Shown here piece by piece: positions 4,529 through 60,535 of a DNA stretch of 64,000 nt (its first letter is position 1; each line of letters begins with the position of its first letter). The DNA is from Vicinamibacterales bacterium (GTDB lineage Bacteria > Acidobacteriota > Vicinamibacteria > Vicinamibacterales > UBA8438), in assembly GCA_965203525.1 (NCBI GenBank), contig OZ241898.1:4695164-4759163 (forward strand), in the 5' to 3' direction. The notes beneath the pieces were generated by a model, which saw nothing but the letters and a program-made list of their open reading frames with translations, had not been told where the DNA came from and ran no database searches. A program made the position numbers and the translations under genes.

Positions 4529-6265
4529 CTATTCGGCAGGCAGGTTCCGTTCGATCCAGTCGATGAGGACCTCGGCGACCCGCGGCGTGATCTCGCGGTT
4601 CGCCGGCGGCGCATCGTCGCCCCCGGCGCCGGCCGCCGGCAGCAGCAGGTGATCGACGCCCTCGAGGGTGGCGAGCTCCACCGTCGACTCCCGGCGCCCC
4701 CGCAAGCGGGCCACCCGCTCGAGGCGTTGCGCGTGATACGGCGGCACTCGACGGTCCGCGGCGCCCTGGATCAGCAGCAGCGGCTGGCGCACCCGGCGCA
4801 CGGCGGCGGTCGGGTCGAAGGCGAGGAAGCTGCGGAACAGGGGCGTGTCGGCCTGCCTGCGCAGCGCGTCGGGGATGCCGTCCCACCCGCCTTCGCCGAG
4901 GACGGCGCGATGGATGCGGGTCTGCAGATCGATGCGCTCCCGTCGTTCCTCTCCCGTCGTGCCGGTGCGCCGCAGCTCGTCCCGCTGCTGCTCCAGCACG
5001 AACGCCGCGCCGTTGGCGCCCGGCGTCGCCAGCAGCGCCAGCCCCCCGATCCGGTTCTCGCGGCGCGCCGCCAGCAGGCCGATCCAGCCGCCTTCGCCGT
5101 ACCCCACCGCGACGATGCGGTCACGATCCACGTCGTCGCGCCGCCGGAGGTAGCGCACCATCTCGCGCACGTCGCCGGCGTAGTCGCCCAGCGCGGCCGA
5201 TTCGGCCCGGCCGCCGCTCTGTCCGAAACCGCGCTTGTCGTAGCGGGCGACCACGAACCCGCCGTCCGCGAGCGCCCAGGCGAGCTGGCGGAAGATCGGG
5301 ACGCCCGCCACCGTCTCGTCCCGGTCGACCGGGCCGGTGCCGGGCACCAGCAGCACCGCCGGCCAGCGGCCGCCGGGCGGCGGCGGCGCGTCCACCGGCG
5401 TGATCACCGTGGCCGCGAGACTGAACCCGGCCGCGCGCACGCGCACGCGCTCGCTGCCGGGGTGCGGCGGATCGGTGGTCAGCCGCGCCGAGACCGACGC
5501 GACGTCGCGCCGCGCGACCTCCACCGCGGCGTGCGGCAGGCTGACGCGCAGCAGCCGGCCGCTCTCGTCGATCCACACCTCGGCGTCGAGCGGCTGCCCG
5601 GGATCGACGAACGTGATGCGGTAGGTCCGCGCCTCGATGATCCGTTCGGCGGTCTCGACGTGCTGAATGCCGGCCGCGTCGACCCGCGCCGACAGGAAGC
5701 CGCGGGGCGGGACGTAGATCGGCAGCTCGTCGCCCGGCTGCGACACGCCCAGCCGCGCGGCCAGCGCTTCGTAGCCGGCGAAGATCGAGTTGGGCAGCAG
5801 GACCGCCGCCGGATCGATCCGGTCGCCGGTCGTGCTCCGCCGGTCCCCCTCCTGCAGGGTGTTGGCCGCGGCGCCGTCCGCGAAGGTGCTCTCGAGGCGG
5901 AAGGGAACGCCCGCCCGCGAACCTTCGAGGACGAGCCGCCGGGGGCGCCACCGCGGGTCGTACTCCGCTTCGAAGACCCGCGTGTCGACCGGGACCGGCG
6001 CCGTCAACTGGCCGCTCGCCTGCACCAGCCACCCGCCGTCGTCCGTCCGGACCACGCGCACGCGCTCGAAACCGGCGGGCGTCGAGCCTGCGAAGACGTT
6101 GAAGAGAGCCTCGCCGGCGGCCGGATCGGCCGCCGGCTGCGCCCGGCCGGCGCCGGCGACCGCGACCGCGGCCGCCGCCAGCACGCAGAGCGCCAGGCGC
6201 ATGCCCGGACGAAGTCGTTGCCGCACGAAAGTCAGCATATCATCCGGCAGACCGCGGGGACACAT
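4529..6265 (-). CDS. Secreted alpha/beta-hydrolase-fold protein with N-terminal extra domain; nucleophile Ser apparently absent
   Basis: Signal-like N-terminus (LALCVLAAAAVAVAGAGRAQ) and an alpha/beta-hydrolase region (VLLVPGTGPVDRDE ... IQGAADRRVP ... GVDHLL). The nucleophile elbow reads GYGEGG instead of G-x-S-x-G. Confidence 0.7.
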   Translation of the reverse strand: MCPRGLPDDMLTFVRQRLRPGMRLALCVLAAAAVAVAGAGRAQPAADPAAGEALFNVFAGSTPAGFERVRVVRTDDGGWLVQASGQLTAPVPVDTRVFEAEYDPRWRPRRLVLEGSRAGVPFRLESTFADGAAANTLQEGDRRSTTGDRIDPAAVLLPNSIFAGYEALAARLGVSQPGDELPIYVPPRGFLSARVDAAGIQHVETAERIIEARTYRITFVDPGQPLDAEVWIDESGRLLRVSLPHAAVEVARRDVASVSARLTTDPPHPGSERVRVRAAGFSLAATVITPVDAPPPPGGRWPAVLLVPGTGPVDRDETVAGVPIFRQLAWALADGGFVVARYDKRGFGQSGGRAESAALGDYAGDVREMVRYLRRRDDVDRDRIVAVGYGEGGWIGLLAARRENRIGGLALLATPGANGAAFVLEQQRDELRRTGTTGEERRERIDLQTRIHRAVLGEGGWDGIPDALRRQADTPLFRSFLAFDPTAAVRRVRQPLLLIQGAADRRVPPYHAQRLERVARLRGRRESTVELATLEGVDHLLLPAAGAGGDDAPPANREITPRVAEVLIDWIERNLPAE

Positions 6266-50134: not shown

Positions 50135-50181
50135 CCGCGCCCTTGATCGGCGCCGGCCGGACGCCGGCGGGGGCGCCGGCC
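50135..50181. repeat. 47-bp direct repeat, right copy
   Basis: Identical to 49477-49523. Confidence 0.9.
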
Positions 50182-50200
50182 GGACGCCGGATCGCTCCGG

Positions 50201-51514
50201 CTACTCGTCGAGGAGGCACCGCGTGAAGCGGTGCTTTCCCTGGGCGGTCTTCGGAATCCGATCCACGTACCGCCATTCCACCCGGCACCCTCTTCCCAGG
50301 GCGCCGCGTATCCCGGCCTCGACCTCCGCCACGTCGTCCTCGTCGATTCCGGCGCACCGCACGACCGAGATCCGGAGGTGGTCGTAGTCGACCTGATCGA
50401 CCTGGAACTGTTCGATCCAGCTTCGAAAATAGAACAGGTGCGTGAAGAACTCCCCGTGCACGACCGCGCCGTCCCGCGAGCGGAAATGGTCCGTGACGCG
50501 GCCCGTCAACTTCTCCAGAACCGGCAGGGGGGATCCGCAGCCGCAAGGGTGGAAGCGCATCGCTCCGGTGTCTCCGACGTCGTAACGGATCAGGGGCATG
50601 GAATAGTTGTGCAGATTGGTGACGATGATTCTTCCCTCTTCGCCGTCGCCCGCCGGCCGGCCCGCGTCGTCCACGATTTCGACGACGTTGTTCATGATGA
50701 ACACGTGCCGGCGGCCCGCCCGGCACTCGCCGGCGATCGCTCCGACCTCCCTGGAGCCGTAGTAGTCGTACGCCTTCGCGCCGAACCGCTCCTCGATCTC
50801 CTCCCGCATGAAGTCACGCAGCATTTCCGCCGCGGAATGGAGAAATCGCGGCCGTGGCAGGCGCACTCCGTGCTTCCGGGCCGCCCGCGCCATCTGGTGC
50901 AGCGAGCCGGCGTATCCGGCCACGTAATGCGGGCGCCACGATCGCAGCCGCTCGACGTGCTCCAGCCAGCGTCGGTCGTTCGTCATCTCGAACGTATCGA
51001 GCAACAGGCGGTTCTGCAGGTAGCACCCGATCCGCTTGCGCCACGGCTTCGCCGCCGCGAGGTCGCGGTCGGACCCCCAGAGCCAGGCGTTCCTCACGGC
51101 GTACCGCTCCACGCCCAGGAACTCGCGAAAATAGTACTCGTGCGTCGCCTCGGCCTGGAGCGCGTACTCGGCATCCTGGATCAGGACCACCGGCCGGCCC
51201 GTCGAGCCCCCGGACGTGTTTTCATATCTGGCCGCCGTCGGTCCGGCGCTCTGCAACGCGGCGAACTTCCGGCGGATGACGTCCTTCGTCAATATCGGCA
51301 GGCGCTCGAGTTCCCGGGACTTCGCCAGGAGCCCCGCGTAGTGTTCGTTGTGGCCGGCGGCGAACGAAAGCAGCTTTCCGAGACGTGCGCGGGACGCGGC
51401 GAAGGGATCCGCGCCGGTCATTTCGCGGACGGACTCGTCGATGTCCCGGTAACGCCGCCGCACCGCTTGAAGCAGACGAAACTTCAGCTTCGAGGCGCGC
51501 TCACGCCATCGCAT
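50201..51514 (-). CDS. Phenylacetate-CoA ligase-like adenylate-forming enzyme (CapK/F390 synthetase family)
   Basis: ENTSGGSTGRPV AMP-binding motif; size and layout match PaaK/CapK-like proteins found in EPS loci. Confidence 0.8.
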   Translation of the reverse strand: MRWRERASKLKFRLLQAVRRRYRDIDESVREMTGADPFAASRARLGKLLSFAAGHNEHYAGLLAKSRELERLPILTKDVIRRKFAALQSAGPTAARYENTSGGSTGRPVVLIQDAEYALQAEATHEYYFREFLGVERYAVRNAWLWGSDRDLAAAKPWRKRIGCYLQNRLLLDTFEMTNDRRWLEHVERLRSWRPHYVAGYAGSLHQMARAARKHGVRLPRPRFLHSAAEMLRDFMREEIEERFGAKAYDYYGSREVGAIAGECRAGRRHVFIMNNVVEIVDDAGRPAGDGEEGRIIVTNLHNYSMPLIRYDVGDTGAMRFHPCGCGSPLPVLEKLTGRVTDHFRSRDGAVVHGEFFTHLFYFRSWIEQFQVDQVDYDHLRISVVRCAGIDEDDVAEVEAGIRGALGRGCRVEWRYVDRIPKTAQGKHRFTRCLLDE

Positions 51515-52982
51515 CCTGCCATTCCTCCGGAATCTCGAATTCGAGGCCGGACAATCGGGTCAGCGGCGTCGGTTCGCCGTCGTCCAGGATCTCCACTTCC
51601 ATCGGCGACGACACGGGAACCGCCAGCCGGCTCTTCGCGTGCCGGAATCCGTAGCGCAGAAGGCGCACCTTCAACGGATCGAAACCGATGAGCCGCGCCC
51701 CGCCCGTATCGACCAGCAGGGGATTCCAGCCGCCCAGCACGACGCCGGCGGCCTTCGGAGCGGGCCGGAGCGGGCCGTACCCTTCGCCGGCGACGACGCC
51801 GTCGACGACGTGGAGCACGTTGCGGACCGGATCCGCCGCCAGGCCGCGCGCGCGCGGATCGTAGAAGTAGAGCGCGTGGTTCAAGTCGAGGGTGGTCCTG
51901 GGAATCGTGTCGTTTCCCGACCAGCCGCCGTCGAACAGACGGTCCCGGTCCAGCCTCCCGGAGGCATGGTGAAGGACTCGCATCAGCAGGGCCTCCAGCG
52001 TGTTGAGCGCCGTCGCCCGCCGGCCGAGGTTGGCCCAGTAGTCGTCGGACACGCGGTTGAGCAGTGGTTTCACGATGCTTGCGCGCCGATACTGGTCGCC
52101 CCCGGTGGCCGGACTGCCGTTGGTGTGGTGCGGCAGATACTCCTTGCGGCCGTTGATGCCGACGACGTTCTTCAACGCGCCCGTGATCCCCGCCTTGACA
52201 TGGCATTTCAGCTTGGGCAGATTGATGACGAAGTCCGCGGACAGGACGGAGTTGGCGACGAGATATTCGTGCTTGCGTCGATCATGGTGCGTGCGCATGA
52301 GCCGCGGGTCGTACATCGTGACGCGGAACCGCGCGGACCTGTTCTGCACTTCCGCAAGCAGGCTGTCCTGTCCGAGGTCGATCAGGGTGTAGCCGCGCGG
52401 ATCCCCCGTTCCCTCGGACTGGTTCTCGAGTCCGGTGATCCGGCCGTCGTGGCCGCGCAGGACGGTCCTTCTGAGGTCGAGGACGGAAAACGTGATTCCC
52501 GGAAAGCGTTTCCGGTAGCGGTCCATCAATTCCCCGACCGCATTCCGCCGGACGAGGGCTTCGAAGTCGCATCCTTGCAGCGGCGCGTCCGCGACGTCGA
52601 TCTCCCCCTCGCCGTCGAGCGCCAGGATCAGGTAGTCGATCGCCGCGCGAATCAGCGACGTGTGCGTGACCAGCGATTCGATGGATTCGTCCAGCGGGTT
52701 CGAGTGGAGCACCCAGTTCGGCTTGATCAACGCCCTCCGGCCGCGCGTGAGGAAACGCCGCAACGGGTTCCAGGCGGGTTTGCCGAAATTGTCCCGATCG
52801 AGGCCCAGGTCCGCGAGGATGCTCCGCACCGCGTCATATACGTGGTTCGTCGGATCGCATTGCGCTTCGAAGGCGGACAGTTCCGGATAGCGGCGCGGCG
52901 GGTGGTACGGAAAGCGAGGATAACGCGCGGGACCGACCCGCCGCAGCGCGACCCGCCGGTCGCGAACGGCGTCGGTGCTCAC
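51501..52982 (-). CDS. DUF362 domain protein
   Basis: RRALIKPNWV...VTHTSLIRAAIDYL is a typical DUF362 core. The ORF is open to 53051; the GTG at 52982 (VSTDAVRDRRVALRRV) is preferred because it lies in the duplicated junction sequence. Confidence 0.7.
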   Translation of the reverse strand: MSTDAVRDRRVALRRVGPARYPRFPYHPPRRYPELSAFEAQCDPTNHVYDAVRSILADLGLDRDNFGKPAWNPLRRFLTRGRRALIKPNWVLHSNPLDESIESLVTHTSLIRAAIDYLILALDGEGEIDVADAPLQGCDFEALVRRNAVGELMDRYRKRFPGITFSVLDLRRTVLRGHDGRITGLENQSEGTGDPRGYTLIDLGQDSLLAEVQNRSARFRVTMYDPRLMRTHHDRRKHEYLVANSVLSADFVINLPKLKCHVKAGITGALKNVVGINGRKEYLPHHTNGSPATGGDQYRRASIVKPLLNRVSDDYWANLGRRATALNTLEALLMRVLHHASGRLDRDRLFDGGWSGNDTIPRTTLDLNHALYFYDPRARGLAADPVRNVLHVVDGVVAGEGYGPLRPAPKAAGVVLGGWNPLLVDTGGARLIGFDPLKVRLLRYGFRHAKSRLAVPVSSPMEVEILDDGEPTPLTRLSGLEFEIPEEWQDAMA

Positions 52983-53044
52983 CGGCCGCCGCCTCCGCGG
53001 GGGTACCGCGGATCGAATCCGACGGTCCGCTCCAGGCCGCCCAT

Positions 53045-53494
53045 TCAACAACGGGACGCCGACGGACCTGATGCCGCGCGGGCCGCTTTCGCCATGCGAG
53101 CGTGCAGCTCACTCAAGGCCGTCTCGAGGAATCGGGGATCCGCCTTCAGTCGAACCAGGCGGTCCAGCGCCTGCGTCTGGATCTCCCCTCTCCTCCAGCG
53201 CTTGAGCGTGGCGATGCCGATGGACAGGTAGTCGGCGAAATCGGGCCACGTCATCGCCAGGTTCCGCCGCAGGCGGTCGATCTCGCCGATCGTGAGCAAG
53301 CCGACCTTGCGGCGGTACGCATCCGACACCGCCCGGTGGTAGGCGCGGGTGTGCCTGCCCAGGATGACCACGCGCCCACAGCGCATGCACTGCGGCGCAT
53401 GCAGGGTCACCGAGACGCGCTCGCCCTTCAGCTCGGCCTCGATGGTTCGGAGGGCTTCCTGCTCGACGACGTGCCCGCACTTGATGCACTTCAT
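53045..53494 (-). CDS. mqsA: MqsA-family antitoxin (zinc-ribbon + HTH)
   Basis: MKCIKCGH...CMRCG (YgiT-type zinc finger), then an Xre-like HTH IGEIDRLRRNLAMTWPDFADYLSIGIATLKRWRRGE. Confidence 0.85.
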   Translation of the reverse strand: MKCIKCGHVVEQEALRTIEAELKGERVSVTLHAPQCMRCGRVVILGRHTRAYHRAVSDAYRRKVGLLTIGEIDRLRRNLAMTWPDFADYLSIGIATLKRWRRGEIQTQALDRLVRLKADPRFLETALSELHARMAKAARAASGPSASRC

Positions 53495-53519
53495 TCTTCT
53501 GGATTCCGGGATACCCGGT

Positions 53520-53897
53520 TCATGGGTCTTGCGTCTCGGTGGACTCGTGAAAGCTCACGATGATCAGCCGCCCGTCGAACAGCGAGAACTTGACGTACAT
53601 CCGGCGCCGGAGACTTGCAGAGGACCACGCGGCCTCGTACAGACGGTGCCCGGCGCAGAGACCGCCGTAGCCGGGGTCGTCGCGCGCATGGAGATCCTCC
53701 ACGGTGATCTCCGCGAGACTCTTGCGCAGGGAAACGGTAATGGCAGGTTCGCCGCGAACGCCGATCGCGTCACAGTCTCGACGAAGCCGATCGTAGTTCT
53801 CCGGCTCCCAGCCGTCCCCGCGTCGAATGCACCGGCGAGCCGCCTCGAGTACCGGACCGAGGGCATCTTCAGGGCCGGGCTTGGGTTCGTCCGCCAT
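53520..53897 (-). CDS. mqsR: MqsR-family toxin (RNase fold)
   Basis: The C-terminus MYVKFSLFDGRLIIVSFHES parallels E. coli MqsR ...VYLKITVIHDVLIVSFKEK. The toxin-first gene order is typical of MqsRA. Confidence 0.7.
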   Translation of the reverse strand: MADEPKPGPEDALGPVLEAARRCIRRGDGWEPENYDRLRRDCDAIGVRGEPAITVSLRKSLAEITVEDLHARDDPGYGGLCAGHRLYEAAWSSASLRRRMYVKFSLFDGRLIIVSFHESTETQDP

Positions 53898-54135: not shown

Positions 54136-56292
54136 TCAAGCGGGTTGATCCCGCCAGGCGAACGGCCGCTTGAAGTTCCGAGAGTAGTAGCGAGGATAAT
54201 CGCGCGGGTCGGCGTGGTTGAGGATGCCCCCCGCCATCCGCGCGTTCACCCGCTGCAACCGTTCCAGGGCGGCGACGGCCGAGGGCCGGGTCGTTTTCGT
54301 GGCGTCGACCACGAACACCACGTCGTTCACGGCGCCGGCCACCAGCATGGCGTCGCCGATCAGCATGAGCGGCGACGTATCGATCACGATCCAGTCGAAC
54401 CGGTTGCCGAGCGACGCCAGTTGCCGTCGGAACCGGGCCGGCTCGATCTGCGTGGCGGGCACGGGGGACGCCGATCCGGCCGGCAGAACCGACAGGTTGC
54501 CGCGGACCTTCCTGATCGCCGCCCCGGCCTCCGTGGCGCCGGCCAGCACGTCCGACAGGCCGGGCTCGCGCTCCACGCCGAAGGTGGTGTGCAGACGCGG
54601 GCGAAGGAAGTCCGCGTCGACGATCAGGACGCGGTCCGACTGCGCGAGCACGTCCGCGAGCAGACTGCTGACGAAGCTCTTGCCCTCCTGCGCGTCGGCG
54701 CTCGTGACGGCTACCGAACGGCAGCCGGGATCCGCCGGCGAGATGACGAGGTGCGCATGGACGTCCCGCATGGTTTCCTGGCACTGCGCACGCGCTTCGG
54801 ACTCGCGGCCGGCGCCCGCCGGCAGCATGCCCAGATTCGGCAGCGACAGAGCGTCCAGCCGGTCCGGCGTGTTGATCCGGTCGTCGAACCGATCCAGGAC
54901 GACCACGAAACCGACGGCGAACAGGATCCCGCCGAACAGGCCGGCCAGCACGGTCAGCCGCCACGACGAACCGCCGGGTCGGAGCGGCACTTCGGCTTCT
55001 TCAATGATTCGCGCGTTGTTCAGGGGCAGATCGATGATTACGTCCGCTTCCTCGATTTGCCCCAGGATCCTCTCGTAGAGCCTTCGGGCCCCCTCGGCCT
55101 CGCGTTGCAGCTCGCTGTACTCTATTCTCTCCCGGTTTATCTCGGTCGCCTCGACCTTCGCGGTTTCGAGTTTCGCCTGAAGCCTCTGTTCTTCGGCCTC
55201 CGCCAGCAGGTACTCGTTGCGTTGCGATTCGATCAGCTTGTCGATTTCGCCGTCGATCATCGCCGTGGCGATCCCGATGGCCCGCCGCACCTTGCGCAGC
55301 TCCGGATGACGGTCGCCCAACGTCTCGGTCAGTTGGGCCTCCTGGCTCCGCAACGCCGCGAGATTCGCTTTCTGGCCCTGTATGACGCCGTTCGCCAGGA
55401 TGTCGGGAAACGTGTCGATTCGCGCGGGGTCGCCGCGGAGCTCTTCCAACCGGGCGTAGTGTGTTTCCTCCCGGATCCGTCTTATCGCGGCCTGGGTCGC
55501 CGCCACGTTCAGATCCACGATCTCCCGGATGACGACGGACTGCCGATTCTCGATGGAAGTGCCGTCGTAACGTTCCAGGTACCGCTGAACCGCGAGTTCA
55601 GCCTCCGAAACCTGCCTGCGCTGCGCCGCGACGTGCTGGCGCAGCGCTTCATGGAAGTTCGACAGGAGATCGCCCCGCTCCTCCGCCAGTATCCGGATGT
55701 ACTCGCTGCCTATCGTGCTCGCCACCTCGGCCGCCAGGTTCCGGTCCCGGGAACGGAACGCGACGCGGACCAGCCGCGAGTTCCGTTCCGGCGCGACCGT
55801 CAGATTGCGAAGGAAGCGGGTGACGGTCCGCGACCTGGTTCGTTCGGCCCGGGTCGCGTCCCGGCCGCCGCCTGACGCCTCGTCCGGAAGCGGCGCTTCG
55901 TCGTTCCCGCCGGCCGTCGGCCTCGGTTTGAACTCGTGGTGATCCCACAGCTCGAGCCGGTCGAGTGTCCGCCGCGCGACCAACCGGCCCTTCAGCCTTA
56001 TGAAATGGGTCTGAATTCGCCTGGCTTCGCGCGGCGCTTCGTCGCGATCCGCGGGGAGTCTCAGTCTGTTCGACTCGACGTTCCCGAACATCAGCGTCGC
56101 CGTCGCCGTGTAGAACCGGGGAACGGACACGGCGTACCAGATGGAAGCAAGGAACACGGGCAGCCCCGCGGCCAGGAACAGCCAGCGCCGCCGGTACAGC
56201 ACGCGCAGGCAGCCGCGCAACGCGCTGACGACGCTCCCGTCGTCGACGTCCGCGAGGTGGGCCGGCTTCCGGTCGTGCGTCGTCATCGTCAT
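54136..56292 (-). CDS. Polysaccharide co-polymerase / tyrosine autokinase (Wzc/GumC/EpsG-like)
   Basis: N-terminal Wzz-like domain with two TM helices and a long coiled coil. The C-terminal ATPase carries a P-loop (SADAQEGKSFVSS) and VLIVDADFLRP. Confidence 0.9.
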   Translation of the reverse strand: MTMTTHDRKPAHLADVDDGSVVSALRGCLRVLYRRRWLFLAAGLPVFLASIWYAVSVPRFYTATATLMFGNVESNRLRLPADRDEAPREARRIQTHFIRLKGRLVARRTLDRLELWDHHEFKPRPTAGGNDEAPLPDEASGGGRDATRAERTRSRTVTRFLRNLTVAPERNSRLVRVAFRSRDRNLAAEVASTIGSEYIRILAEERGDLLSNFHEALRQHVAAQRRQVSEAELAVQRYLERYDGTSIENRQSVVIREIVDLNVAATQAAIRRIREETHYARLEELRGDPARIDTFPDILANGVIQGQKANLAALRSQEAQLTETLGDRHPELRKVRRAIGIATAMIDGEIDKLIESQRNEYLLAEAEEQRLQAKLETAKVEATEINRERIEYSELQREAEGARRLYERILGQIEEADVIIDLPLNNARIIEEAEVPLRPGGSSWRLTVLAGLFGGILFAVGFVVVLDRFDDRINTPDRLDALSLPNLGMLPAGAGRESEARAQCQETMRDVHAHLVISPADPGCRSVAVTSADAQEGKSFVSSLLADVLAQSDRVLIVDADFLRPRLHTTFGVEREPGLSDVLAGATEAGAAIRKVRGNLSVLPAGSASPVPATQIEPARFRRQLASLGNRFDWIVIDTSPLMLIGDAMLVAGAVNDVVFVVDATKTTRPSAVAALERLQRVNARMAGGILNHADPRDYPRYYSRNFKRPFAWRDQPA

Positions 56293-57151
56293 CAGAAGAA
56301 CCGCCGCGGAACGACGATGGTGTCGTCGGGGCGCACCACGTCCGACAACTCCAGGCGAACCTCGGCCGGCTCGCCGTCCACGACCCGCAAGGCGCGGATC
56401 CGGTCGAGCGCGCCCAGCCAGGTGCCGCCGCCCGCCAGCGCCAGCGCCTGCGACACCATCAGGTCGTTCCGGCGCAAGGGGTACTCTCCCGGATTCCGCA
56501 CCGCGCCCCGCACGAAGATCGTGGGGGCCCTGGGCACGATCACCGTGTCTCCGTTCCGGAGCGGGACGCCGCCGTGCCGCGCGATTCCGCGCTGCAGGTC
56601 TCGCAGGTCCACGCGGATCGTATCGGCGGCTTCGGGTTCCGCGAGGAGCCCCCCCCCCCCCCCCCCCCCCCCTCCCGATCCGTCCGCCGCGGCGCCGGCC
56701 GCACCAGGATCACTTCGTGGGAGGCGCGCTTCGTCGTCGGTCCGGCGGTGGCCAAGGCTTCTATCAGCGTCATCTCCCCGAGCAGGGGAAACACGCCGGG
56801 ATTCTCGACTTCGCCGATGACGGACACCCGCCGGCTGCGCAACGTCTCCATCGCCGCTCTGACCCGGGGGTCCCGCAGGTGCCCGTCCGCCAGACGCGTC
56901 GTGAGGAGTTCCTCGAGGGAACGCAGCGTCATGCCGCCCACGGCGATTCGTCCGAGCGGCGGAAAGGCGAAGGAACCATCCGCCTCGACCGTGTAGAGAC
57001 CGCTGAGCTGTTCCTGCTCGTACACGATGATCCGCACCACGTCGCCCGTGCCCAGCCCGCCGCCGGGGTCCGGCGGCGCACCAGCCTGGCTTCCCGCCGC
57101 GCCGGCCGCGGCCGCTCCCCACAGGCACACGACGGCGCCCAGGGTTCGCAT
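56292..57151 (-). pseudogene. Wza-like polysaccharide export protein (Poly_export + SLBB), frame broken at a poly-G tract
   Basis: The N-terminal frame from ATG 57151 has a signal peptide and GDVVRIIVYEQEQLSGLYTVEADGSFAFPPLGRIAVGGMTLRSLEE...VSVIGEVENPGVFPL. The C-terminal frame ending at 56292 reads IRVDLRDLQRG...LRNGDTVIVP...VRGAVRNPGEYPL...DDTIVVPRRFF*. The two frames meet at 56649-56672. Confidence 0.8.
56649..56672. repeat. Homopolymer: 24 consecutive C (G on the coding strand)
   Basis: Counted directly in lines 56641-56680: ...gaggagCCCC(x24)tcccg. Confidence 0.9.
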
Positions 57152-57253
57152 CGACCGGAACGACCCGCCGCCTGTCGTCATGACGTTACAAGGGGAAGTC
57201 AAACTCGATGGCAGCACGGACTTCCACCGTCACGCCGCACCGCGAGCCGGCGC

Positions 57254-58255
57254 TCAGGGGAGCGCGTTCAGCGTCGCCTGCGCCTGCGCGGCCTCGGCCT
57301 GCGACGTCGGATCGTCGACGTCGACCACCCGCTGGAAGTACTCCTTGGCGGTCGCCACGTCCCCCTTGTTGAGCGCCACGAGCGCGAGCTTGAAGAGCGG
57401 CTTGCCCCAGTTCGGGTCCACCATGGTCGCCCGCTCGTACCACTGGGCGGCGTCGTCGACGGCGCCGCGGGCGAAAGCCTGCTCGCCCTGGTTGTAGAGG
57501 TCCTCGCGCGAGGCCGAGAGGCTGGACGCCGCGGCTTCGAGCAACTGCCGGTCGGCGGCGTCGGCCGTGCCGTTCGCCAGCCGCGCCCGGGCGCGGGCGG
57601 CGAGCAGGTCCTGGTTCTGCGGATCGTTCGCCAGCGCGCGCTCGAAAGCCGCGATCGCCGCCTCGTAATCCTGCATCTGGGACCAGGCGTTGCCGATGTT
57701 GAAGTACAGGTTGCTGAGCGCCGGAAGCTGCGCCAGCACGGCTTCGTAGCCGGCGATCGACTCCTCGTAGTTCCCGGCGTTGAACGCGGCGTCCGCCGCC
57801 GCCGTCTGCGCGTCTATCGCATCGAGGTCGATCCCGGCGACCGCCTCGTCGCCGAGCATCTCCGCCAGCGGGTGGCGGATGCGAAGCAGGGCGAAGTCGA
57901 CCGGGGGGTTCCGCGTCTGGGTGATCCGCGCCGGTCCCTCGCTCGGCGCATAGCCGCGCGCCGCCCCGTTGCGCTCGGCGCAGGCGCCCGAACAGTCGGC
58001 CCGGAAGCTCCAGTTGCCGCTGACCAGTCCGAGGATGGCGAACCGCCCGTCTTCCTCGGTCTCGGTGGTGAACTGCGGGGGGTTGGCGGCCGGGTTGGTG
58101 GCCGTGATCCGGACGCCGGCCAACGGTCTCCCGTCCTCGTCGGTGACCTGCCCGGCCACGCGTCCCTGGCCCTGCGCCGCCGCCGGGGCGGCGATCGCCA
58201 GAAGGAGGAAGAAACCGGGCAGGGAACGGATGACGCAACGCGGGCGCAGGCTCAT
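57254..58255 (-). CDS. Secreted CarboxypepD_reg-like domain + TPR repeat protein
   Basis: Signal peptide; GRVAGQVTDEDGRPLAGVRITATN...EDGRFAILGL (CarboxypepD_reg-like beta-sandwich). TPR-like repeats follow in the C-terminal half. Confidence 0.75.
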   Translation of the reverse strand: MSLRPRCVIRSLPGFFLLLAIAAPAAAQGQGRVAGQVTDEDGRPLAGVRITATNPAANPPQFTTETEEDGRFAILGLVSGNWSFRADCSGACAERNGAARGYAPSEGPARITQTRNPPVDFALLRIRHPLAEMLGDEAVAGIDLDAIDAQTAAADAAFNAGNYEESIAGYEAVLAQLPALSNLYFNIGNAWSQMQDYEAAIAAFERALANDPQNQDLLAARARARLANGTADAADRQLLEAAASSLSASREDLYNQGEQAFARGAVDDAAQWYERATMVDPNWGKPLFKLALVALNKGDVATAKEYFQRVVDVDDPTSQAEAAQAQATLNALP

Positions 58256-58366
58256 GTCGTAACTCCTTGTATCTCCCCGGAACCGCCGGGAGAATTGCTC
58301 GCCGGGTACGTGCGCATGCGATCTGCGCTCCTCACGCGCTCCGGGACGCGCGCGGACCCGGTGCGC

Positions 58367-59017
58367 CTACCGGTCCACGCTCGCCAGCAGCGCCTCGATC
58401 GCTCCCTGCGCCTCCCTGCCGGCGGAACCGCCGGCGGGAACGGCGCGATACGCCGCGAGCGCCCGTTCGAGATCGTTCTTCTCGCGGTACGCATGTCCTA
58501 TCTGGACGTGCAGGCCGGTGAGCCGCGGGACGCTGGCCAGCACCGCGCCGTACGCGTCGATGGCCGCGTCGTAGTCGCCGTCGTCGTAGAGCGCGTCGGC
58601 GGCGTTCAGCGCTTCCTGCAGTTCGTCGCCGCGGAGGTTCGCCAGGACGCCCGTCGACGGCGCCGGCGGATGGAGCGGGTCGGTCTCCATGACGAAGCCG
58701 ACGCGCGCCGTTCCCGCCCCGCGCACGTTGGCGAATCCCTGCACCGGCTCGTAGCCCCGCCGTCGGATGAGGAAGAGCCAGCGGCCCCTCTGCAGGCCGA
58801 TGAAGGAGAAGCGGCCCGCGTCGTTCGTCGTCGTCTCGATCCGGCGCTGCCACTCCGTGTTCTCTCCCACGACCTCCGCGCCGACTATCGGCTCCCCTTC
58901 GACGTCCCGCACCGCCCCGGTGACCACGCCGGTCTGGGTGGCGGCCGCCGCTGCGAGCGGCGGCAGAAGCAGCGACGTGACGACCAGCGCCGGAACGGTG
59001 ACCGCGGAACGTGGCAT
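58367..59017 (-). CDS. Secreted CarboxypepD_reg-like domain + TPR protein (shorter paralogue)
   Basis: The ATG at 59017 gives MPRSAVTVPALVVTSLLLPPLAAAAA (signal peptide). GVVTGAVRDVEGEPIVGAEVV...DAGRFSFIGL follows, then TPR-like helices. Confidence 0.7.
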   Translation of the reverse strand: MPRSAVTVPALVVTSLLLPPLAAAAATQTGVVTGAVRDVEGEPIVGAEVVGENTEWQRRIETTTNDAGRFSFIGLQRGRWLFLIRRRGYEPVQGFANVRGAGTARVGFVMETDPLHPPAPSTGVLANLRGDELQEALNAADALYDDGDYDAAIDAYGAVLASVPRLTGLHVQIGHAYREKNDLERALAAYRAVPAGGSAGREAQGAIEALLASVDR

Positions 59018-59122
59018 GGCGTTTCCTCGTGGCCCCCGCCGGGCTTCCGTCCTCAGGCAGGGCCGATGCCGCGTGAGCCGGCTGGAGCGGTCAACAGTAT
59101 ACACTCGGATCCGGTCGGAACG

Positions 59123-60346
59123 ATGCACGCGATCCTGCGCCGTGCCCCCCTCGCCGGAGCCGTCCTGGCCCTGCTCGTCACCGCATCCGGGCAGGCGGCG
59201 CCGCGGGCGCAGGCCGCGCCGCGGGCCGGCGCGCCGCCGCCGGTCGACACGGCGCGCCTCGCGCGGATCGACGCCGTCGTCGGCGACGCCGTCGCCGCGG
59301 GCGAGCTGCCCGGCGCGGTGGTGCTGATCGCCCACCGGGACCGGATCGTCTATCGCAAGGCGTTCGGCCACCGCTCGCTCCGTCCGGCGCGCGAGCCGAT
59401 GACCGTCGACACGATCTTCGACCTCGCCTCGCTCACCAAGGTGATCGCCACCGCGCCGAGCGTGATGGCGCTCGTCGAGGACGGAGCCGTCCGGCTGCGC
59501 GATCGCGCGGCCCGTTTCCTCCCCGGATTCCAGCGGCACGGCAAGGAAGCCGTCACCGTCGAACATCTGCTGACGCACGTGTCGGGGCTGCGGCCCGACC
59601 TGCCGCTCGAGGAGGAGTTCGAGGGCGCGGACGAAGCCCTGCGGCGCGTATTCGAGGAACGCCCGGAGGCTCCACCGGGCGAGGCGTTCGTCTACAGCGA
59701 CCTCAACTTCCTGCTGCTCGGCGAGATCGTCCGGCGGGTGAGCCGGCAGGCGCTCGACGCCTTCGCCGCCGAACGTCTGTTCGCGCCGCTCGGCATGCGC
59801 GACACGTCGTTCCGCCCGGGTCCGGAGCGCGCCGCGCGCATCGCCCCCACCGAGGCGTGCGCGCGCCTCCGGTGGCCCTGCGGCGGGCCGGGGGCGGTGA
59901 TGCTGCGGGGAACGGTCCACGACCCGACCGCCCGGCGCATGGGGGGCGTGGCCGGACACGCCGGCCTGTTCGGCACCGCCGGCGATCTGGCCCGCTTCGG
60001 CGCGATGCTGCTGAACGGCGGGCGCGCGGCGTCCGGCAGGGCCGTGCTGTCGCCGCTGACCGTCGCGCGCATGACGAGGCCGTCGACGCCGGCCCACGTG
60101 CGGGACGTGCGCGGGCTCGGCTGGGACGTCGACTCGCGCTACGCGAGCAACCGCGGCGACCTCTTCCCGCCCGGTTCCTTCGGCCATACCGGGTTCACCG
60201 GCACCTCGATCTGGATCGATCCGGGGACGGAGACCGTCGTCGTCTTCCTCTCGAACCGGGTGCATCCGGACGGCGGCGGCAACGTGGTCCGGCTGCGCGG
60301 CCTCGTGGCGACCCTAGCCGCCGCCGCGATCGGCGCGGCTCCTTGA
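59123..60346 (+). CDS. Serine hydrolase, beta-lactamase (class C/DD-peptidase-related) family
   Basis: Signal peptide, S-x-x-K (ASLTK), Y-x-N (YSDLN), HTGFTG. Confidence 0.9.
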   Translation: MHAILRRAPLAGAVLALLVTASGQAAPRAQAAPRAGAPPPVDTARLARIDAVVGDAVAAGELPGAVVLIAHRDRIVYRKAFGHRSLRPAREPMTVDTIFDLASLTKVIATAPSVMALVEDGAVRLRDRAARFLPGFQRHGKEAVTVEHLLTHVSGLRPDLPLEEEFEGADEALRRVFEERPEAPPGEAFVYSDLNFLLLGEIVRRVSRQALDAFAAERLFAPLGMRDTSFRPGPERAARIAPTEACARLRWPCGGPGAVMLRGTVHDPTARRMGGVAGHAGLFGTAGDLARFGAMLLNGGRAASGRAVLSPLTVARMTRPSTPAHVRDVRGLGWDVDSRYASNRGDLFPPGSFGHTGFTGTSIWIDPGTETVVVFLSNRVHPDGGGNVVRLRGLVATLAAAAIGAAP

Positions 60347-60361: not shown

Positions 60362-60535
60362 TCGCATCCGGTACAGCATCCAGCAGACCGCCACGTCCCG
60401 ACAGGAGCGGTTCGGACGAGGCGCGCCCGCTCGCCGCTCACATCCGGTACAGCATCGCCCCGACAGGAGCGGTTCGGACGGGGCGCGCCCGCTCGCCGCT
60501 CACATCCGGTACAGCATCCAGTAGACCGCCACGCC
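60362..60535. repeat. Local duplications of the DUF420 3' end and adjacent spacer (periods 76 and 62 bp)
   Basis: tc(g/a)catccggtacagcatc... occurs at 60362, 60438 and 60500. The spacer ccgacaggagcggttcggacg(a/g)ggcgcgcccgctcgccgc occurs at 60398 and 60460. Confidence 0.85.

Follow-up and report, generated by a model that had tools for sequence, protein, structure and literature searches.

Nearly all that is known of phase variation by simple sequence repeats (SSRs) comes from pathogens and commensals living with a host, and a recent review of the subject lists the bacteria of soil and ocean as a gap in knowledge (PMC11868660). Here we describe a candidate from an uncultured bacterium of the order Vicinamibacterales (Acidobacteriota). 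It is an unbroken run of 24 G inside a gene for an outer membrane polysaccharide export (OPX) protein, in 64,000 nucleotides of contig OZ241898.1 (assembly GCA_965203525.1, positions 4,695,164 to 4,759,163) that we will call the window. What can be described is the tract and its reading frames, a deletion linked to it, a polymorphism in tract length that includes both frame classes, the loop in which the tract lies and the family to which the gene belongs. From these we develop the suggestion that the tract may switch the exporter on and off.

Two described systems of phase variation are useful for comparison. In Campylobacter jejuni, poly-G/C tracts are found in capsule, lipooligosaccharide and flagellar glycosylation loci. 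As in the window, a G/C homopolymer lies within a gene of a surface-polysaccharide locus; slippage in C. jejuni switches the reading frame, and tract length varies between strains (PMC8355987). The C. jejuni tracts, however, are mostly G9-G10, number 12-31 per genome and occur in modification genes (PMC8355987), whereas here we have a single tract of 11-24 nt in an OPX export gene of an uncultured high-GC bacterium, tied to a compensated 7-nt deletion, and the switching is our proposal. The second system is that of the sortase-pilus operons of Bifidobacterium breve (genes bbr_0113 and bbr_1889). This is also a high-GC organism and no classical pathogen. An intragenic G tract divides the operon's first gene into two open reading frames, both this gene and, through coupling, the genes downstream depend on an in-frame length, and the annotated length deviates from the distribution in the population (PMC9187656). 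A single-colony culture contained 37% G11 and 60% G12 (PMC9187656). The differences are that the B. breve tracts have 10-12 nt and were studied by error-controlled sequencing and by enrichment in vivo, whereas ours is known from assembly consensus only, and that the operon there makes a pilus while the gene in the window is for a polysaccharide exporter. The phase-variable capsule of Akkermansia was considered as another precedent and set aside, since it uses an invertible promoter and not a tract in wza. The mechanism that we have in mind is of the classical intragenic homopolymer contingency type; it differs from these examples in the uncultured, high-GC environmental host, the OPX target, the length of the tract and the linked deletion.

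On the side of the protein, the closest described counterparts are the Class-3 OPX proteins WzaX, WzaS and WzaB of Myxococcus xanthus. Class 3 is defined by the presence of Poly_export and SLBB domains together with neither a Wza_C helix nor a GfcC domain (PMC9603273). The window gene shares this composition and, like the M. xanthus genes, is paired with a gene for a polysaccharide co-polymerase/tyrosine kinase in a Wzx/Wzy-type locus (PMC9603273, PMC12819527). No phase variation of a Class-3 OPX was reported in the OPX literature that we surveyed, which is a limited sample.

The G tract, the deletion and the reading frames

The split OPX gene occupies 56292-57151 on the minus strand. On the plus strand the tract is a run of 24 C at 56649-56672, that is, G24 on the coding strand, where it encodes poly-Gly. 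The N-terminal frame begins with the ATG at 57151, passes through the tract and meets a premature stop at 56542-56540, giving a product of 203 aa. The C-terminal frame leaves the tract and ends at the stop at 56294-56292. When the gene is rebuilt with 25 or 22 G it becomes a single open reading frame (ORF) of 286 or 285 aa, while with 24 G it is broken, so that unit changes in the tract alter the reading frame. Here our base count and our rebuilt sequences agree with the initial annotation, which had given the same tract at the same place and the same two restoring lengths. Directly 5' of the tract stands GGGA (56673-56676, minus strand), whose lone A interrupts what Tandem Repeats Finder reports as an imperfect run of 28 nt at 56649-56676.

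A run of this length is far outside what base composition would give. The window has 72% G+C, and its other homopolymers do not exceed 7 nt (one C7, one T7). Runs of C with lengths from 1 to 7 number 11120, 4165, 823, 158, 47, 10 and 1, after which comes the single run of 24; the expected number of runs of at least 24 nt in the window is about 2e-6.

Eleven alleles of the same species, the window included, could be compared, with flanking DNA about 97-99% identical to that of the window at the nucleotide level. In a protein search the homologues form a tight group at 81-95% identity, and the best named homologues are proteins from metagenome-assembled genomes of Vicinamibacterales and Acidobacteria at 43-46%. 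Scans of the JGI metagenome collection and the GTDB representative genomes added no alleles: the exact pattern GGCGGACGGATC N{4,34} CTCCTCGCGGAACC had no match in either, and protein-seeded scans of both returned distant relatives only, at 28-54% identity.

In five of the eleven alleles (L003, L014, L004 and L005, the last with identical copies L006 and L007) the tract is absent and only the ancestral G4 is found. They read ...CGTCCGGCG[G/T]CCGGCGCCGCGGCGGACGGA[T/G]CGGGGCTCC... and encode RPA[A/S]GAAADG[S/A]GL. The other six have an expanded G run exactly at the ancestral G4, and with it a deletion of 7 nt about 20 nt upstream and linked single-nucleotide differences. The initial annotation was right that the frames are broken at the tract, but it had missed this deletion, which the tract compensates. 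All tract alleles share it. One unit of the direct repeat CCGGCG[G/T]CCGGCG is gone (56687-56701, minus strand), so that CGTCCGGCG[G/T]CCGGCGCCGCGG of the tract-free alleles becomes CGGCCGGCGCCGCGG; in the DNA alignment the junction falls at about 56692/56693, with the ambiguity that a direct repeat brings.

The six tract assemblies, which are independent of one another and include scaffolds from four other samples, have six different configurations. We express the length of each run as the number of nucleotides between GGATC and CTCCTC. L002 has G14 (14 nt), L017 has GGGAG13 and L016 GGGGGAG11 (17 nt each), and L001, from a 5.19-Mb contig, has GGGGAG15 (20 nt); these four are in frame. L015, a short scaffold with G13 followed by a T>C change (13 nt), and the window, with GGGAG24 (28 nt), are out of frame. 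At consensus level, then, the count is four in-frame and two out-of-frame alleles. Leaving the window aside, the five tract alleles have pure G runs of 11, 13, 13, 14 or 15 nt. The interrupting A follows three G in the window and L017, four in L001 and five in L016, being absent from L002 and L015.

The in-frame lengths are precisely those that offset the 7-nt deletion. Between the deletion and the tract (56672-56692, minus strand) seven codons of the window allele, PRRTDRE, are frame-shifted relative to the ancestral AADGSG, and in the in-frame tract alleles likewise about seven codons (PRRTDR and then E or G) are read in the shifted frame. In the C-terminal frame of the window the stretch upstream of the tract continues to encode AAGAAADGSG, exactly as in the tract-free protein P0006. 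Judged from these sequences, the window allele differs from its ancestor by an in-frame gain of 24 nt and an uncompensated loss of 7 nt: the lesion in the frame is the deletion, and the varying element is the tract.

A comparison with orthologues, which the initial annotation had proposed, favours a real, slippage-prone switch, since the tract recurs at one site in six alleles of the species with six configurations of both frame classes. It is absent from five of the eleven alleles and from all more distant homologues. Among the orthologues the gene is not generally split at this site without a homopolymer, a finding that would have spoken against the whole idea.

Two side observations concern the same part of the gene. 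In L004 (6001-7137, P0001, on a 455-kb contig), and also in P0133 (on a 10.7-kb contig), SLBB1 and its linker are tandemly duplicated over 291 bp. The result is an exporter of the form Poly_export-SLBBx3, with 378-398 aa, so that together with the tract alleles a small region of the OPX gene exists in three structural forms in one species. Further, an 83-aa C-terminal fragment (P0121, corresponding to about 56292-56543 on the minus strand), called as a gene of its own and identical to that of the window, is recorded on three contigs, so that split (OFF) alleles may be present in two more assemblies.

How far the tract length can be trusted

Could the tract be an artefact? At least five other samples gave assemblies with the tract at this site, short scaffolds and a multi-megabase contig among them, and one allele (P0122) appears in both Logan and ENA. 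A chimeric join, or a poly-G artefact of Illumina chemistry or of read ends, was considered and ruled out: on either side of the tract the sequence is collinear with intact alleles, and different samples show the tract again. When the window is aligned with L002 and L001 over about 17-20 kb, the tract is the one indel within a gene whose length is not a multiple of three, if a divergent and poorly aligned part of a Wzy_C-type gene at the end of L001 is left aside. By this comparison the general indel quality of the window is good. Nor do the fetched loci of the species and its relatives contain any other homopolymer of at least 8 nt.

How long the tract exactly is must be judged separately. 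The window's 203-aa fragment (P0123) is recorded on a single contig of 5,344,657 bp (NCBI, ENA), and because of this the source is most likely a long-read assembly, whose tract length is not to be trusted to within 1-2 nt. Nanopore R10.4 consensus resolves homopolymers only below 11 nt, and runs of at least 10 nt "will probably still be problematic" (PMC9262707); lengths of G tracts in databases can differ from those in the real population (PMC9187656). Hence one may suppose that the true modal length in the window is in frame (22 or 25, or GGGGA in place of GGGA), that the gene is intact, and that the poly-Gly is an insertion tolerated in a loop, with no switch at all. Besides the technical points, this supposition draws on L001, which has GGGGA where the window has GGGA, one added G being enough to put the window in frame, and on the other tract alleles, which are mostly in frame (four of five when the window is left out). 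Yet it explains one record and not six lengths, four of them on short scaffolds that probably derive from short reads. The rest of the region is free of indel errors, although it contains no other long homopolymer that could serve as a control for this one. Moreover, the mutation rates of C. jejuni tracts of about G8-G11 are 1e-4 to 1.6e-3 per division (PMC8355987), from which one would expect instability in vivo for a run of 24 nt, whatever its consensus. We consider a mere error of length unlikely as the full explanation, while taking it seriously for the single call. The tract is real and length-variable between strains; the "off" length of the window could be a base-calling error.

The other out-of-frame allele calls for a separate remark. 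L015 is called as two genes, of 198 aa and 83 aa. At about 5476-5495 of that locus a T>C change stands right after G13 (CCCCTC for CTCCTC), which could be an artefact or a real mutation that extends a C run. Illumina artefacts at G tracts have been described (PMC9187656), and because the substitution sits right at the end of the tract, this OFF allele is suspect.

The exporter protein and the loop that carries the tract

In Pfam the repaired protein matches Poly_export (1.9e-16), SLBB_2 (1.2e-15) and SLBB (1.8e-15). The Poly_export match (PF02563) covers residues 32-98 with 60 bits against a cut-off of 28. The SLBB_2 match covers residues 108-206, across the tract, and a second SLBB lies downstream. 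The break is thus inside SLBB1, whereas the initial annotation had put it at the border of the two domain types, Poly_export and SLBB. The nearest NCBIfam models are those of EpsE-type exporters, with a score under the equivalog cut-off. The N-terminus, MRTLGAVVCLWGAAAAGAAG, is hydrophobic and resembles a signal peptide (putative).

An AlphaFold model of an in-frame allele of the same species (P0003), made with an alignment of 96 sequences, has a mean pLDDT of 87 and two beta-grasp modules. Foldseek matches it to domains D1-D3 of E. coli Wza (2J58; E 2.7e-18, TM 0.64), a Class-1 OPX with a related Poly_export sequence, while the best solved relative in sequence is the Class-3 OPX WzaB of M. 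xanthus (9n9a). Unlike Wza, the window protein does not have the C-terminal amphipathic helix that builds the outer-membrane pore. It ends a few residues past the last strand of SLBB2, the model is without a C-terminal helix, and no Pfam match to a Wza_C helix or a GfcC domain was found in the repaired protein. By the published criteria (PMC9603273) its predicted domains make it a Class-3 OPX, a periplasmic module that could not span the outer membrane by itself. The family named in the initial annotation therefore stands and a Wza-type pore in the outer membrane does not; to speak of an outer-membrane exporter overstates what this protein can do alone.

Class-3 proteins of M. xanthus work with an 18-stranded beta-barrel partner, and here the window differs, since no gene for such a partner was found in it: tblastn with the BBP2_2 barrel protein of the conspecific L005 gave no match in the window. 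The partner may be encoded elsewhere in the genome. A beta-barrel gene beside that of a Class-3 OPX is frequent and not obligatory, occurring in about 71% of cases in myxobacteria (PMC9603273). As an observation in its own right, L005-L007 do carry a BBP2_2 beta-barrel gene after wzc, which is a candidate porin partner of the Class-3 OPX.

The model places the tract between two strands of SLBB1, in a loop of 22 residues without structure (P0003 residues 152-173), and the Gly run has pLDDT below 50. In the alignment of 96 homologues this segment is anywhere between 16 and 56 residues long and has no conserved sequence. GGGG occurs in it only in the conspecific tract alleles, and none of the 87 more distant homologues has the tract. 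Because loop length varies and only these alleles have GGGG, the tract is a recent polymorphism within the species, in a permissive loop, and no conserved feature of the family.

The 5' part of L001 is 12-16 nt away from the tract-free L004 and L014 and 23-25 nt from the window and L002; from this mosaic background it would follow that the haplotype of deletion plus tract is old enough to have recombined and has had some persistence. Another idea is that the gene is simply decaying and that the window holds a degenerating allele of a dispensable exporter, in which the frameshift is a fixed loss and the tract a product of neutral, runaway slippage. The haplotype does join two lesions, the 7-nt deletion and the expansion. 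The tract is very long, with A interruptions at varying places as in decaying repeats; the content of the locus varies between strains; and the beta-barrel partner is, as said, not found in the window. Decay, however, should leave a number of disabling lesions that arose independently, with relaxed constraint after the first of them, and the gene has one frame break only. Its 3' part in the window has no extra stop, is 1 nt from the in-frame L002 and 0-5 nt from several intact alleles, and being intact and nearly identical it argues against decay. Four of the six tract alleles are precisely in frame, and an in-frame tract allele folds confidently in the model. The kinase and other genes of the locus align to relatives without frame-breaking indels, and no second OPX gene was found in the window. 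Decay seems to us improbable.

A possible switch of polysaccharide export

The gene downstream has to be introduced here. Directly after the OPX gene, and in the same orientation, lies a gene for a Wzc-like polysaccharide co-polymerase/tyrosine autokinase (54136-56292, minus strand). It matches TIGR01005 (8.3e-56) and TIGR01007 (5.2e-33) in NCBIfam, the latter above its cut-off, while Pfam matches to GNVR, AAA_31 and Wzz are weak. The OPX stop and the ATG of the kinase overlap as TGATG (56290-56294, minus strand; coding-strand sequence TTCTTCTGATGACGATG), a possible site of translational coupling.

The suggestion towards which we lean, with somewhat more belief than doubt, is that of a real, locally hypermutable tract that toggles expression of the exporter, as in classical SSR phase variation. 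Slippage, reversibility, polarity on wzc and an exopolysaccharide (EPS) phenotype or benefit are what we infer, and the sequence of events would be as follows. In the lineage with the tract, the deletion of 7 nt about 20 nt upstream would have shifted the frame, after which read-through would be had only when the imperfect run from GGATC to CTCCTC equals 2 modulo 3 (14, 17, 20 ... nt). Slipped-strand mispairing in replication would alter the run by one or a few nucleotides, and the gene would alternate between an ON state, with a complete exporter of some 281-286 aa, and an OFF state, with a truncated product of 203 aa which comprises Poly_export and part of SLBB1 and is presumably inactive. 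Given the overlap between the OPX stop and the kinase start, termination 248 nt upstream in the OFF state would probably also lower translation of the Wzc-like kinase, so that export and assembly of the polymer would switch jointly. Since a 24-mer should be at least as unstable as G8-G11, natural populations would be expected as mixtures of lengths, and "24" would be one consensus call, or a miscall, from such a mixture.

One more step in the proposal concerns the OFF state, which slippage in transcription or translation on the run may make leaky. A stronger version is that expression is never truly off: RNA polymerase or ribosomes would slip on the G run, where tRNA-Gly can re-pair in any frame, and so restore some product. 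The homopolymer is far longer than the RNA-DNA hybrid. Frameshifted SSR constructs keep a low, frame-dependent expression through frameshift suppression (bioRxiv 10.64898/2026.04.01.715767), and there is good documentation of transcriptional slippage on long mononucleotide runs (PMC1088944, PMC5009743). But the documented bacterial slippage sites are A/T runs (PMC1088944), and for G runs we found no evidence. A programmed site would, moreover, keep its length and its out-of-frame state, while most alleles are in frame or tract-free, and slippage of this kind would modulate switching at the DNA level and not replace it. We give little credence to such recoding as the explanation of the locus. 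Its strictest form, a conserved programmed recoding site, was rejected, given that four of six tract alleles are in frame and that five conspecifics and the 87 distant homologues are tract-free.

Several points weigh against the proposed switch. Four of six alleles in frame, against one third by chance, is not significant (binomial P = 0.10), and both OFF alleles may be technical, the window being probably long-read and L015 having its T>C change at the tract end. With the tract missing in five of eleven conspecific alleles and all more distant homologues, there is no conserved regulatory device. In the window and the fetched loci no second long tract was seen and so no sign of a phasome, the larger set of phase-variable genes that is usual, though not required, in a genome with such loci. 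Blocking export rather than initiation could be costly, as undecaprenyl phosphate-linked pathways suggest. The capsule transport genes of C. jejuni are conserved, its switches being found in modification genes, and its tracts of G11 or longer are biased to deletion (PMC8355987). A 24-mer looks more like a runaway expansion than like a tuned switch. Finally, the differences in length are differences between consensus assemblies, and the rate, heterogeneity and reversibility of the switch are predictions.

If the toggling exporter is accepted for the sake of argument, what would maintain it? In Acinetobacter baumannii, phage selects slippage mutants in capsule loci (PMC10249906), and by analogy phage would be a plausible selective agent for the tract. 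A tentative extension, in which we have less than even confidence, is that the tract acts as a mutable "frame restorer" of the fixed 7-nt deletion. It would then give heritable and reversible bet-hedging of EPS export, and of the Wzc step by coupling, as a balanced polymorphism beside the tract-free and SLBB-duplicated alleles, for instance under pressure from phage or grazers.

As to the wider locus, syntenic loci show a neighbourhood with genes for a GT4 glycosyltransferase, a MurJ-like flippase, Wzy_C, DUF362 and CapK_C proteins. The content 3' of wzc varies among conspecifics (window about 50170-53540 compared with L001, L002, L005-L007 and L016). DUF362 and CapK_C genes follow wzc in the window, L001, L002 and L004, and a gene for an MqsA-like antitoxin is present in L002, L016 and, by alignment, the window, and not in L001. 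No RNA families were found in the window with Rfam, and a scan for promoters and terminators around the OPX gene was empty or uninformative. Elsewhere, a 62-bp unit is present in two tandem copies at 60397-60518 (98% match, Tandem Repeats Finder score 237); in L001, L002 and L014 a single copy of about 63 bp aligns to both in BLAST, which suggests a strain-specific duplication. Readers of the window should also be aware that its very high G+C yields long spurious ORFs opposite real genes, so that ORF length alone is no evidence for a gene. An ORF of 1401 aa at 56141-60346 on the plus strand, for example, is antisense to the OPX and TPR genes, and in comparison with L014 only its last 395 or so codons appear to match a real gene, of the beta-lactamase family.

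A full-text search gave no paper that joins Acidobacteria, exopolysaccharide and phase variation beyond one incidental match, and the locus may be the first case of SSR phase variation in the phylum. Comparison with relatives, on the strength of assembled sequences, lifts the tract from a possible error to a real hypervariable tract; that it switches, with a phenotype and a benefit, is what we propose on that basis. A practical point follows for anyone who meets a "frameshifted" gene of this sort in a long-read genome: it should neither be corrected automatically nor be called a pseudogene before the lengths have been viewed at the level of reads. If the tract does switch in vivo, uncultured environmental bacteria would be using localized hypermutation to turn EPS export on and off. 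Such loci could then be discovered by comparing homopolymer lengths across metagenome assemblies, and the switching would bear on the formation of biofilms and aggregates and on escape from phages and predators.

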